A DNA stretch of 61,328 nucleotides from a virus (lineage: Duplodnaviria > Heunggongvirae > Uroviricota > Caudoviricetes), in IMG/VR virus record IMGVR_UViG_3300042894_001948; one strand, given 5' to 3'. Positions 41,771-46,635 of this stretch are shown piece after piece (within the stretch, counting starts at the first letter, position 1; each line of letters opens with the position of its first letter). Both the position numbers and the translations under genes were made by a program. The notes under the pieces are model-generated. The model did not search any database. It saw only the letters and a list, made by a program, of their open reading frames with translations, and was not told where the DNA came from.

Positions 41771-42007
41771 TTAAAAAGAACCCAACTACTGAAAAAACTT
41801 TTGCGAAAGCAGGCACAACGTGTTCTCCGGAAGGGGCACAGTGGGTAGTTATAGACTGCGAGTTGTAATGAGTGAGAGTTTCAGGCAATTACAGTGCTTT
41901 GATTCTAGTTACTATGGTAGTCATGTTGGCGGAACTAGTAAAGGGCGTCTGTAAAACGTTGACCGCATCAGCTCGATGAAACCAAAACTTTACGGGGTTC
42001 TTTTTAA
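41771..42007 (+). ncRNA. About 235-nt multi-stem RNA (Y-like RNA 4, divergent motif)
   Basis: 13-bp closing stem ttaaaaagaaccc/gggttctttttaa; GNRA hairpin; Tyr-like anticodon arm at 41945-41959. Confidence 0.6.
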
Positions 42008-42014
42008 TAAGTTT

Positions 42015-42142
42015 TAGAATGTTAACCGCATCATAATTTAATGGAAACTGGTGTCCTTAGGACGTGTAGGTGCAAGTCCTACAATGCAATATTGCATTTG
42101 GCGAAAGAGTAGACGCACTGGTAAATAAAATGCATTCTGATA
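42015..42142 (+). ncRNA. Y-like RNA 5, permuted tRNA-Leu mimic
   Basis: agaatgt/gcattct stem, TAACCGCATC, variable arm gtcc-ttag-gac, T arm gtagg-tgcaagt-cctac, looped acceptor aatgca/tgcatt, D arm gcg-aaagagtaga-cgc. Confidence 0.8.
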
Positions 42143-42151
42143 AACAAGTTT

Positions 42152-42214
42152 TAGGATAGTAACAGCAACAATTTACATCGGACTCTTAATCTGGCAAGTA
42201 AATTCTATCCTGTT
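42152..42214 (+). ncRNA. Y-like RNA 6 with Lys(CUU) anticodon loop
   Basis: aggatag/ctatcct stem, TAACAGCAAC, cgga-CTCTTAA-tctg. Confidence 0.75.
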
Positions 42215-42219
42215 AATTT

Positions 42220-42307
42220 TAGAATAGTAACAGCAAATTATTTAATGGTTCGATTCCATTATTGCTATCTTAGCGATAATGCTCAATGGTGAGCAAGCTA
42301 TTCTGTT
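42220..42307 (+). ncRNA. Y-like RNA 7, minimal permuted tRNA mimic
   Basis: agaatag/ctattct stem, TAACAGCAAA, T arm aatgg-ttcgatt-ccatt, acceptor attgcta/tagcgat, D arm tgctc-aatggt-gagca. Confidence 0.8.
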
Positions 42308-42311
42308 AAAG

Positions 42312-42426
42312 TTGTTATATTAAAATGTACTACAGCGTCTGATATCAACGTAAGTGTGGAGCACTGCTAGAGTCGCCCTTTAGTATACGGTTCGATTCCG
42401 TGATGTAGTACATTTTAATATAACAA
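42312..42426 (+). ncRNA. Degenerate tRNA-like element inside a 23-bp perfect inverted repeat
   Basis: ttgttatattaaaatgtactaca/tgtagtacattttaatataacaa; T arm tacgg-ttcgatt-ccgtg. Confidence 0.5.
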
Positions 42427-42438
42427 AAGGAGATTAAT

Positions 42439-42621
42439 ATGGCCGGTAAAGGTAGTAGAGCAAGACCATTAAGCGTTAGCAAATCTCAGTTTGATGATAA
42501 CTGGGATAAGATTTTTGGTAAGAAAGAAGAACCCAAAACAGAAATCATTTCAAACTCACACGGCAGTCATGCTAATAACGAAAATTTAGATAAAGGAACA
42601 CAAGATGGCGAACATCAGTAA
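42439..42621 (+). CDS. Small conserved T4-like phage protein
   Basis: GKGSRARPLSVSKSQFDDNWDKIFG; AGGAG SD. Confidence 0.7.
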   Translation: MAGKGSRARPLSVSKSQFDDNWDKIFGKKEEPKTEIISNSHGSHANNENLDKGTQDGEHQ

Positions 42622-42838
42622 AGCAAATAGAACTGCAGATCCAAAAGTAACACGTAATGGCAGACCTAGACTTAAATTGCTAAACTTAGCTCAAGCTAAG
42701 ACAGCACTTGAAAAAGCAGGTCGTGGACGTGATAAAAATAAAATTCGTAACAGAATTGTACTTTTAGAAAATCGTGCTAAAAAATTAGGTGTGTTAGATT
42801 TAGTCACAACTACAACTAATGATGCAGAACTTGTATAA
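42605..42838 (+). CDS. Basic hypothetical protein
   Basis: AAGGA SD; 77 aa. Confidence 0.6.
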   Translation: MANISKANRTADPKVTRNGRPRLKLLNLAQAKTALEKAGRGRDKNKIRNRIVLLENRAKKLGVLDLVTTTTNDAELV

Positions 42839-42850
42839 ATAAAGAACGTC

Positions 42851-42934
42851 GGAGGTCGAGCGGCATTGGCGACTGCAGTGGACTGTAAATCCATGCCCTC
42901 TGGGCACCTGGTTCGAATCCAGGGATCTCCACCA
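42851..42934 (+). tRNA. tRNA-Tyr(GUA)
   Basis: Cloverleaf, long variable arm, encoded CCA. Confidence 0.92.
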
Positions 42935-42940
42935 ATATAT

Positions 42941-43015
42941 GTCGCTATCGTCTAGTGGTTAGGACACAAGGTTTTCATCCTTGCAACCGGGGTTCAATTC
43001 CCCGTAGCGACGCCA
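42941..43015 (+). tRNA. tRNA-Glu(UUC)
   Basis: Cloverleaf, anticodon arm caagg-ttTTCat-ccttg, CCA. Confidence 0.93.
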
Positions 43016-43033
43016 AATATTATCCGAGGTAAG

Positions 43034-44293: not shown

Positions 44294-44872
44294 ATGGAAC
44301 AATATAAGAATAGTGACGGCACATATACAAGTCCAAAAAACAACAGGACTTATAAAAGTTTAAAAGCATTTACTGCCCACTGGCATTATGCACATACTAC
44401 TAATCCAAACGCATTTGCTGAACGATTATATAATGTAGCATGTCAGTATTGCAATAAAGAATATGTGATTAGTAATCATAAACGACATGAAATTGCATGT
44501 TATTTAAATCCGATTAATATAAAAAAATGTTGTGTTTGTGATAAACCAATTAAGAATTACAAGTACAGTAAAGGTACGTGTTCTCATAGTTGTTCTAACA
44601 CACATTTTAAAGAACTAAGAAATAAACCAGAAAAATATACGCAATATGCAACTATTTGTTGGCACTATCATGTTAAAGAATGTATAGTATGTAAAGAATC
44701 AAATATTGTAGCAGTACATCATTATAATGAAAATCATAATGATAATACACTATCAAATTTAGTTCCATTATGTCCTACTCATCATCAATACATGCATAGT
44801 AGATTTAAAATCCAAATTCAACACATAGTTGATGAGTATGTATTAAATATGAAAATAAAGTTTAGAGAATAG
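44294..44872 (+). mobile_element. HNH endonuclease with Cys-rich Zn fingers within the tRNA array
   Basis: CIVCKE..VAVHHYNENHNDN..SNLVPLCPTHH; own promoter 44232-44259. Confidence 0.8.
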
Positions 44873-44882
44873 TGTGTTGTGT

Positions 44883-44955
44883 CAGGGTATAGCTGAGGTT
44901 GGTTTAGCACCGCGTTTGGGGCGCGGAGACGGGAGTTCGAATCTCTCTATCCTGA
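44883..44955 (+). tRNA. tRNA-Pro(UGG), no encoded CCA
   Basis: ccgcg-ttTGGgg-cgcgg; flanked by gtgttgtgt/acacaacac extension. Confidence 0.88.
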
Positions 44956-45007
44956 CACAACACATTACTAAATTTAACCCAACATAGTACGCGAATACTA
45001 TAGTTTT

Positions 45008-45059
45008 TGAATGCTAACAGCAATTATTACTTTCAATGGTGAATTTAATGCATTCAGTT
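45008..45059 (+). ncRNA. Y-like RNA 8 with Glu(UUC)-like loop
   Basis: tgaatgc/gcattca stem, TAACAGCAAT, atta-CTTTCAA-tggt. Confidence 0.7.
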
Positions 45060-45082
45060 ATATTATTTGCATACAACAGTTT

Positions 45083-45139
45083 TGGATGCTAACTGCAACT
45101 TTAAACTTTCTTTTTATGAAACTTAAAATGCATCCAGTT
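45083..45139 (+). ncRNA. Y-like RNA 9 with Lys(UUU)-like loop
   Basis: tggatgc/gcatcca stem, TAACTGCAAC, tttc-TTTTTAT-gaaa. Confidence 0.7.
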
Positions 45140-45149
45140 ATATTTTACT

Positions 45150-45224
45150 GCGGGAGTAGCTCAGTGGTAGAGCTCTTGCCTTCCAAGCAAGATGTCGCGA
45201 GTTCGAATCTCGTCTCCCGCTCCA
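45150..45224 (+). tRNA. tRNA-Gly(UCC)
   Basis: Cloverleaf, U73, CCA. Confidence 0.95.
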
Positions 45225-45249
45225 ATTATTAATTACATAGAGGTACAAT

Positions 45250-45639
45250 ATGAAACTAACGATTACTGATAACAGCACGTTAAAAAAAGTAAGAACCCGT
45301 ACTCATAGGAACGGAACACAACATAGTGCACCAATTAAAAGTTTTAAAGGTAAAATACACGGACTACGTGTAATTGTAACTGAAACACTTACTCAAAAAA
45401 AGTATTATTTTGTTATACCGTTTGCAGCATATGAACAAATGCGTAGTCATACCTCTCTTGAAATACTATTTGAATTAGATGGTACGCCATCTAAACAACG
45501 AGCTAGCAATAGTTATAATGCTATACCAAATTGGTGGAATTATCAAGTTCCATCAGAAATACATATGTATATCTATAACATAGATAATAAATCTCAAACA
45601 CCAGTTACATCACAAGCTAATAAATTATTTGAATTTTAG
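45250..45639 (+). CDS. Hypothetical protein
   Basis: GAGG SD; 129 aa. Confidence 0.6.
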   Translation: MKLTITDNSTLKKVRTRTHRNGTQHSAPIKSFKGKIHGLRVIVTETLTQKKYYFVIPFAAYEQMRSHTSLEILFELDGTPSKQRASNSYNAIPNWWNYQVPSEIHMYIYNIDNKSQTPVTSQANKLFEF

Positions 45640-45646
45640 GAATAAT

Positions 45647-45922
45647 ATGACACAGATTAGAGCAAAACACATTTTAGTAGAAACACAAGAACAAGCAGCT
45701 GACCTATATAACAAAATTGTTAATGAAGGTGCAGACTTTGGCGCAATTGCTGCAGTAAATAGTAAGTGTCCAAGTGGACAAAATGGTGGCGATTTAGGTA
45801 ACTTTGGTCGTGGACAAATGGTTGGACCATTTGAAGAAGCGGCATTTGGATTAGGCATTGGTAACTTTAGTCAACCAGTACAAACACAATTTGGCTGGCA
45901 CTTAATTCAACGTACTGGTTAA
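45647..45922 (+). CDS. Parvulin-type peptidyl-prolyl isomerase (PpiC-like)
   Basis: IRAKHILV, SKCPSGQNGGDLG, QMVGPFEEAAF, TQFGWHLI. Confidence 0.92.
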   Translation: MTQIRAKHILVETQEQAADLYNKIVNEGADFGAIAAVNSKCPSGQNGGDLGNFGRGQMVGPFEEAAFGLGIGNFSQPVQTQFGWHLIQRTG

Positions 45923-45923
45923 T

Positions 45924-46529
45924 ATGATTAAGGTAATCGACAATTTCTTACCTCAAATGTATGCTGATCAAATTGAGTATGAAACCAAACATGAACTAAT
46001 GTATAGATACAGAGAGTATACGTCACCAAAAGCTGAATATGTTGACTCTACAGTAGTAATTGATAAAAACACTTACGATTGTGGACAATTTGTATGTTTA
46101 TTGCTGCATTCAGATTATGATATAGACTATAAATTTAAAGATTATTTTGAACAACTTAAGGCAGTAGTGTTTACAGCTAGAGAACATATTGAAAAAGATA
46201 TTTGTTCAGTTGATCGAGTTAAAGTAAATTTATTATTACAACAATCGCAAACACCTGAATACCATTATACAGTTAGTCATGTTGATAAAATTTCTAATTG
46301 TTACTACAGTATGCTATATTATATAAATGATTCAGACGGTGATACCTTTATGTTTAATGAATTCCAAAACGTAGATCGAACTCTTCCAACAGAACTAACA
46401 CTATGCCAACGTATTAGTCCTAAAAAAAATAGAGCAGTAATTTTTGAGTCAAACAGATATCATGCTTCGTCTAATCCAAGAAAACATGCAACTAGATTTG
46501 TAATCAACTTTGTAATGAAAGTTGAATAA
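45924..46529 (+). CDS. 2OG-Fe(II) oxygenase-like protein
   Basis: VIDNFLP, HVD, YYINDSDGDT, KNRAVIFESNRYHAS. Confidence 0.8.
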   Translation: MIKVIDNFLPQMYADQIEYETKHELMYRYREYTSPKAEYVDSTVVIDKNTYDCGQFVCLLLHSDYDIDYKFKDYFEQLKAVVFTAREHIEKDICSVDRVKVNLLLQQSQTPEYHYTVSHVDKISNCYYSMLYYINDSDGDTFMFNEFQNVDRTLPTELTLCQRISPKKNRAVIFESNRYHASSNPRKHATRFVINFVMKVE

Positions 46530-46534
46530 AGAAT

Positions 46535-46635
46535 TGGTATAGATACTGCAACACAACTTTGGCTGGTCTGTGGTTTCACAGACAATCCTAGGACTCTTTA
46601 CCTAGTATAAAAAAAGTAAGAACTACTATACCGTT
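46535..46635 (+). ncRNA. Y-like RNA 10
   Basis: ggtatag/ctatacc stem, TACTGCAAC; hairpins gtctgtg/cacagac and ctagg/cctag. Confidence 0.7.

Follow-up and report, generated by a model that had tools for sequence, protein, structure and literature searches.

Anticodon-arm mimics on Y-like RNAs in phage tRNA arrays and their possible role as bait in the conflict over tRNA cleavage

Why would a phage encode small RNAs that display the anticodon arm of a tRNA and no other part of it? This question is raised by an array of RNA elements in IMG/VR virus record IMGVR_UViG_3300042894_001948 (Caudoviricetes), whose stretch of 61,328 nucleotides (nt) is here called the window. The window comes from a large, AT-rich lake jumbo phage with 35% G+C. 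The array spans positions 41433-47118, and its elements, among which tRNA genes are interspersed, have a common handle, in which a stem is combined with a UAACAGCAA-like box on the 5' side and with a CUGUU tail. Cutting of the tRNA anticodon loop is a common last-line defence of bacteria, and the known phage answers are repair, as with T4 Pnk and Rnl1, which answer PrrC, and resistant replacement tRNAs, as in T5, whose tRNA-Tyr answers the retron Eco7 PtuAB. An initial annotation of the window had proposed that small Y-like RNAs of the array present bare anticodon loops for Lys CUU, Lys UUU, Glu UUC and Tyr GUA and might act as anticodon-nuclease decoys. The four loops it named (CTCTTAA, TTTTTAT, CTTTCAA and CTGTAAA) are all present where it had placed them. 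The element with the Lys-CUU loop, E6, is a real anticodon-arm mimic, and E6, less surely together with the element E9, belongs to a widespread phage RNA family. The display of anticodon arms on Y-like RNAs is strongly supported across this family. Below, positions without a locus name refer to the window, related loci carry an L number, and G002 is a complete relative of 372 kb with terminal repeats.

E6 is a small Y-like RNA encoded at 42149..42216 on the + strand. The minimum free energy (MFE) fold of E6 contains the hairpin in question, in which the loop CUCUUAA (42183-42189) is closed by a stem of five base pairs (bp) (42178-42182/42190-42194), two of them G-U. The loop is letter-identical in four variant orthologues (L017/G002, L016 and L090/L158), and the stem varies in a compensatory manner, being UCGGA/UCUGG in the window and UUGGA/UCUAA, UCAGA/UCUGG or UUGGA/UCUGA in the others. 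The hairpin has all the features of an anticodon stem-loop, namely a 5-bp stem, a 7-nt loop, a pyrimidine at position 32, U33 and a purine at position 37. Both cggaCTCTTAAtc and cggaCUCUUAAuc of E6 are common to real phage tRNA-Lys(CUU) arms, and the element scores 76.5 bits (E 2e-11) against R1, the covariance model of the family described below. Elements of the E6 type have no T arm, D arm or acceptor stem, just a stem of 4-5 bp and a 7-nt loop. ARAGORN and Rfam (RF00005) call the seven tRNAs of the array and none of its small elements. The invariant loop, the compensating stem and the enrichment in the family bear out the earlier proposal of a bare Lys CUU loop at this place.

The family was retrieved from IMG/VR by a pattern built from the handle alone, so that the search contained no information about the loop. 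Loose regular expressions for box and stem had a false-hit rate of about one per 8 kb, and the exact handle pattern and a covariance model were used in their place. At least 119 loci with at least 67 distinct small elements were found. When loop sequences were tabulated across these homologous arrays, the check that the initial annotation had suggested, 29 of the 67 distinct small elements among the matches listed carried CUNNNAA on a stem of 4 bp or more, compared with a mean of 0.17 and a maximum of three in 2000 shuffles of the inner sequence. The same frame occurs in only 0.58% of the 17,663 hairpins with 7-nt loops in G002. In an alignment of the 29 elements, three pairs of the arm stem covary, one of them with five pair types, and the closing pair is A-U in 27 of the 29. 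The covariation score of the arm stem is 0.324, compared with 0.105 in shuffles, none of 500 of which reached it, and all slid controls scored lower. Four pairs of the stem are well supported, and a fifth forms in about half of the elements. The AU-richness of the hairpins makes MFE folding of the inner regions uninformative, and covariation was relied on instead. The covariance model R1, built from this alignment, found further members, some with variant handles, bringing the total to at least 47 distinct strict mimics in at least 55 contigs. Matches of R1 in G002 are confined to the array, and R1 found no further elements elsewhere in this 372-kb genome.

The RNAs of this family are about 60-72 nt long, with the handle topped by a 4-5-bp hairpin and a 7-nt loop. 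Their arm consists of an A31-U39 closing pair, C32, U33, three variable letters, A37 and A38, a loop frame that is also the commonest one in real phage tRNA arms (314 of 641). All of the elements are located in phage tRNA arrays, and a DUF2828 homologue is present in most loci long enough to show one. As a control for circularity, each mimic was paired with its nearest relatives irrespective of class. Across 28 close pairs, the differences per site were 0.21 in the stem, 0.11 in the triplet and 0.05 outside the hairpin, and there were no differences among 112 comparisons at frame positions 32, 33, 37 and 38. Unrelated loops are found on other small elements that share the handle, indicating that the arm is a separable module. 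It is quite probable that the hairpins of the E6 type in general are real anticodon-arm mimics. No published description of anticodon-arm mimics on Y-like RNAs was found in the literature searched.

The triplets of the at least 47 distinct strict mimics are UUU (18), CUU and UCU (6 each), GUA and UGA (4 each), GCU and UUC (2 each) and GUU, UGU, GCA, UAA and AUU (1 each). Lys leads, followed by Arg, Tyr, Ser and Thr, and Lys accounts for 51% of the listed mimics compared with 6% among real phage tRNAs of this loop frame. The third letter of the triplet is nearly always U or A, with G or C at position 36 in only one of 23 distinct arms, compared with 32% of real same-frame arms (p = 0.004). The 7-mers of the mimics match the loops of real phage tRNAs with the corresponding anticodons. 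One triplet may stand on several stems (five each for UUU and CUU), and near-identical backbones may differ in the triplet only, as in L097 (UUU) versus L144 (UCU) and L108 (GUA) versus L058 (UGA). At least 11 contigs carry two or more mimics of differing triplets, for example UCU, UGU and GUA in L074.

The other loops named for the window are much less secure. E9 (45004..45061, +) is a small Y-like RNA with a candidate Glu-UUC arm, in which the loop CUUUCAA (45030-45036) shows the CU-NNN-AA frame on a stem of 6 bp (45024-45029/45037-45042) that includes three G-U pairs, and R1 matches it with an E-value of 0.008. However, the MFE fold picks a different register, and the arm is kept solely in the window, G002 and L016; the orthologue in L158, a more distant jumbo relative, has UUUC-AUUGGC-GAAA. 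The proposed Glu UUC loop holds in close relatives as far as the frame is concerned, and E9 is perhaps a second mimic gene in the same phage, a doubtful case of arm display. E10 (45079..45141, +) is a small Y-like RNA with a real hairpin at 45107-45121, but its U-rich loop (45111-45117) is UUUUUAU in the window, UUUCCAU in G002 and AAUUGGU in L158 on a conserved stem, and has no anticodon frame. Because this loop changes among close relatives, E10 is not an anticodon mimic, and the reading as Lys UUU falls. E4 (41771..42007, +) is a conserved RNA of 237 nt that holds the CUGUAAA sequence (41949-41955) proposed as Tyr GUA. This sequence is invariant in four homologues, and the 3' half of E4 is likewise invariant in them, so that there is no covariation. 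The Tyr-like hairpin is absent from the MFE fold and from the consensus fold, in which UGUAAA pairs at long range with UUUACR, and was rejected. The two weaker cases proposed earlier, at 46593-46600 and in the element at 41614, both have loops of 8 nt. E2 (41611..41672, +) is a small Y-like RNA whose loop, UUUUGAAU, is not an anticodon frame, and E11 (46534..46637, +) is a handle-bearing RNA with a hairpin at 46588-46605 and the loop ACUCUUUA; in L016 its stem covaries and the loop becomes ACUCUAGA. The proposal of bare anticodon loops on small Y-like RNAs thus stands for E6 and, strongly, for the family, is weak for E9 and does not extend to E10, E4, E11 or E2.

Two of these elements call for separate remarks. 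E4 has the same 3' half, letter for letter, in the window and the more distant phage L090/L158, and its 5' half has diverged with compensatory changes; Rfam contains no family that matches this 237-nt RNA. The hairpin of E10 (45107-45121) belongs to a second recurring class of small elements, marked by a U-rich stem and by UUGGU or AUUGGY in the loop, which is also found at L158:310-373 and 391-451, L135:7903-7967 and L100:2725-2789. These loops resemble positions 16-20 of the tRNA D loop, and the class may be a D-arm mimic. A related type, GCUA-ACUUUGGAUGUC-UAGC, occurs at L059:899 and L134:11674.

The protein encoded at 47123..48538 (+) is a DUF2828/DUF7788 protein (Pfam; phrog_850) with a Ro60-like fold. 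An AlphaFold2 model made from an alignment of 18 homologues has a mean predicted local distance difference test score of 70.7, and the top 12 matches of this model in a Foldseek search against the PDB are all Ro60. The best is Ro60 of the Thermus phage phiLo (E 6.5e-8), followed by human, Deinococcus and Xenopus Ro60. The likeness is by fold only: Pfam gives no TROVE match in the DUF2828 protein, and neither sequence search nor profile search against PDB sequences gave a match. Because of this fold, Y-like is a fair label for the RNAs, and the DUF2828 protein is presumed to be the partner of the handle. Among the RNAs themselves, E1 alone gives a match to YrlA, and one below threshold. As in the Ro60/Y-RNA system of YrlA (RF02553; PMC4201824), small RNAs are encoded beside a ring-shaped Ro60-fold protein and combine a conserved protein-binding stem with a module that copies part of a tRNA, the binding by DUF2828 being putative here. 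However, the tRNA-like part of YrlA comprises the T arm, D arm and acceptor stem and no anticodon arm, whereas elements of the E6 type copy the anticodon arm alone. Furthermore, the handle of the window, with its UAACAGCAA box, is not the YrlA stem, and the protein belongs to DUF2828/DUF7788 and not to TROVE. Phage examples of the YrlA type are known from mycobacteriophages and from phiLo. In the Listeria phage CKA15, three highly transcribed regions lie less than 2 kb from an Rsr-like gene, and possible Y RNAs have been suggested by the authors (PMC12282133).

Full-length homologues of the DUF2828 protein are found in Felixounavirus (FelixO1, wV8 and JH2; 35-36% identity) and in Listeria phages. 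The DUF2828 gene of FelixO1 lies directly upstream of a tRNA array, which matches the gene position reported for gp130 of Bas63, a Ro60-like protein that counters the Ppl defence and is encoded upstream of a tRNA array (PMC11482910). The presumed link of gp130 to the window protein runs through the Felixounavirus DUF2828 homologues. Ppl is an ATPase-PHP system. In FelixO1 (L162), a cultured model phage of Salmonella, two unannotated elements with an ACAGCAA box are present at about 9375-9600, where the tRNA array downstream of the DUF2828 gene has a gap, and one of them has a T arm and a D arm. Neither a regular expression nor R1 found the box near the DUF2828 genes of KVP40 and S13.

Genes for RNA repair bracket the Y-like array and the DUF2828 gene. 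An Rnl2-family RNA ligase (39305..40405, +; PF09414, E 3.6e-9; phrog_548, E 1e-51) is encoded 1 kb upstream of the array, and an AAA_33 P-loop kinase resembling polynucleotide kinase (50100..50579, +; PF13671, E 5e-20; phrog_505 'polynucleotide kinase', E 3e-11) lies on the other side. Kinase homologues are present in 23 diverse phage loci; in the cases checked, they follow the DUF2828 gene at a distance of about 1 kb. An Rnl1-type ligase is encoded elsewhere in G002, and no RtcB gene was found in this complete genome. The initial annotation had noted that there is no tRNA-Lys gene in the window; this is correct by ARAGORN and Rfam, and the same is true of G002.

Since the same design with differing anticodon letters recurs in at least 55 phage contigs, the mimics may be bait in the fight over tRNAs. 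The RNAs, presumably expressed as stable molecules, would be bound at the handle by the Ro60-like DUF2828 protein encoded next door, and the exposed arm would serve to bait some protein able to read anticodon loops. The likeliest targets would be defence nucleases of the host that cleave tRNAs; the bait would sequester or tether them, and a change of the triplet would retarget the bait. Together with the phage's own tRNAs, the RNA ligase and the polynucleotide-kinase-like enzyme, the array would be part of an island for tRNA protection and repair. Such targets are consistent with published work: PrrC takes its cues from the anticodon stem-loop and cleaves isolated analogues of it (PMC1950546); AriB of PARIS reads the tRNA-Lys stem-loop and is answered by the tRNA-Lys of T5 (PMC11464382). 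A decoy function against nucleases of the PrrC, RloC or AriB type, as proposed in the initial annotation, is plausible. The Ro60-like fold of the neighbouring protein, the flanking ligase and kinase genes and the reported action of Bas63 gp130 against Ppl would fit it. The array shares with the phage answers described at the outset a conflict over the anticodon arms of tRNA-Lys and tRNA-Tyr and the presence of tRNA arrays, an RNA ligase and a kinase nearby. It differs from them in that those answers are repair enzymes or complete, cleavage-resistant replacement tRNAs, whereas the isolated arm on a non-tRNA scaffold can be neither charged nor used for decoding. We put the probability that the mimics act as bait in a tRNA-cleavage conflict at about 0.45. 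The specific mechanism of a nuclease decoy is offered only tentatively, as is the more elaborate picture, itself doubtful, of panels of swappable anticodon-arm baits on a Ro60-like scaffold, each of which would neutralise a host nuclease that cuts a particular tRNA anticodon, or report its activity, and could be retargeted by a change of one to three letters.

Several observations weigh against a role as bait. Taken alone, the AU-rich hairpins are of low stability (about 0 to -2.3 kcal/mol), and many lie outside the MFE fold. PrrC prefers modified bases. The triplet AUU is not a natural anticodon, and the dominance of Lys could be a founder effect because most other triplets are one or two steps away from UUU. 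Lys mimics often lie beside real tRNA-Lys(UUU/CUU) genes in the same phages; such mimics fill no gap in the tRNA set, and the idea that mimic triplets complement the phage's own tRNAs was rejected for this reason. In a quick look at FelixO1, no bare anticodon-arm element was found, so the counter-defence role of the Bas63 protein may not need the arm module. Finally, a few mimics in the leader of the DUF2828 mRNA hint at a role in cis. Such a role would be that of translational operators or processing signals in long tRNA-array transcripts, for example in autoregulation of DUF2828. The thrS operator of E. coli mimics an anticodon arm to bind an anticodon-reading protein, and the likeness extends to a hairpin that copies the anticodon arm and to the position of some family members in the DUF2828 leader. 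Within the 80 nt that precede a DUF2828 start codon, 34 distinct small elements were counted, three of them strict and five looser mimics, and in the window a stripped copy of the handle, E13 (47066..47118, +), occupies this position, which in other phages is taken by a full small element. However, 44 of 47 strict mimics are free-standing in tRNA arrays, far from a DUF2828 gene, and they carry many triplets, unlike the thrS operator. E6 itself is separated from the downstream DUF2828 gene by about 4.9 kb that hold tRNA and protein genes. We regard a function in cis as very unlikely.

A different enzyme could also be the one that the arm attracts. In that case, the Ro60-like ring and its RNA tether would form a platform for repair or processing that recruits a phage RNA ligase or kinase or host enzymes modifying the arm, and tRNAs would be mended or matured rather than a nuclease being soaked up. 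Y RNA tethers PNPase to Rsr, and the t6A37 and i6A37 enzymes act on loops with U36-A37 or A36-A37-A38, a requirement that agrees with the restriction of position 36 to U or A in the mimics. The kinase homologues in diverse loci, the ligase upstream of the array and the Rnl1-type ligase of G002 also favour such a platform, as do a survey of jumbo phages in which TROVE proteins are described as repair platforms with a tRNA-like partner (PMC7824862) and the finding that Ro60 and Yrl RNAs of a Thermus phage assemble with host PNPase (PMC12135203). However, repair of the T4 type needs no adaptor because the broken tRNA halves stay together, a ligase near the array is found solely in the window's own clade, and recognition of an intact arm by ligases or kinases is an assumption. 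On these grounds we regard a repair platform as unlikely. It is quite unlikely, too, that the frame C-U-NNW-A-A is merely a U-turn loop used for folding, for stability or for contact with DUF2828 or another phage protein, its middle letters being free to drift. Such drift would agree with a rate of change in the triplet that roughly equals or exceeds that in the rest of the RNA, with the occurrence of AUU and with the short distance of most triplets from UUU. Against it, elements with the same handle bear quite different loops, indicating that the handle does not need this one, and the frame, the A31-U39 pair and the 4-5-bp stem copy the commonest real arm. The persistence of one triplet on several stems and the constraint at position 36 are also difficult to reconcile with drift. 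E10, E11 and E2, with their variable or 8-nt loops, are best read as chance hairpins in AT-rich DNA, and this reading is a possible one for E4 and E9; for E6 and the family, chance is excluded by enrichment, covariation and conservation, and as an explanation of the whole it has almost nothing to recommend it.

If the mimics are indeed bait for anticodon-reading nucleases, bare-arm RNAs on a Ro60-tied scaffold would constitute a third kind of phage answer, apart from repair and replacement. The widespread DUF2828 proteins of phages and their partner RNAs would gain a concrete, testable role, and the tRNA mimicry of Y RNAs would be extended to the sole tRNA arm that is absent from YrlA. The repertoire of triplets could then be read as a record of the tRNAs attacked by host defences. 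Related proteins are present in cultured phages (Felixounavirus, P100-like phages of Listeria, KVP40 and the Synechococcus phage BUCT-ZZ01), which makes experiments feasible. In BUCT-ZZ01 (ON615601.1), R1 matches lie at L041 1490-1565 and 7833-7902.

The array also contains elements of other kinds. Besides group I introns and a gene for tmRNA, the window phage has seven tRNA genes (Tyr, Glu, Asn, Thr, Ser, Pro and Gly; 42851..45224, +; ARAGORN and Rfam), which are mixed among the Y-like RNAs. The long elements E1, E5 and E7 have T or D arms. E1 (41433..41552, +) is a long Y-like RNA with both arms and resembles YrlA (RF02553; 38.9 bits, E 4.8e-6, short of the gathering score of 69), and E7 (42217..42309, +) is a long handle-bearing RNA with a T-arm-like module (R1 match, E 0.003). 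For the small elements, Rfam yielded no family at gathering and E-value thresholds, and E6, E9 and E10 gave no YrlA match. A megablast search of the array against 50,697 phage records returned tRNA-sized matches only.

In close relatives, the array differs from that of the window by whole cassettes (L011:5740-5950 and 6040-6330; L017:3745-3870): two short protein-coding genes lie among E5, E6 and E7, and E4 is separated from E5 by an additional tRNA-like element. The extra DNA between E5, E6 and E7 was considered as a source of further small RNAs, which was rejected since it reads as short protein-coding genes. A tRNA match of 46.9 bits by Rfam, not called by ARAGORN, lies at G002:C1:345884-345955, in the vicinity of tRNA-Met and tRNA-Arg(CCU) and a long way from the main array. 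The tRNA and Y-like genes of the window are interspersed with three likely homing-endonuclease genes, at 43034-43558 (T5orf172, GIY-YIG-like), 44294-44872 (HNH-like by eye, with no Pfam match) and 48770-49378 (SegE-type GIY-YIG). Genes for a parvulin-type peptidyl-prolyl isomerase (45647-45922) and a 2OG-Fe(II) oxygenase (45924-46529) lie inside the array, and the isomerase gene is near the array again in other loci. In related loci, ARAGORN calls tRNAs that read stop codons, with the anticodon CUA in L018, L041, L080, L114, L127, L132 and L138 and UUA in L059; these may be suppressor tRNAs or a sign of recoding.

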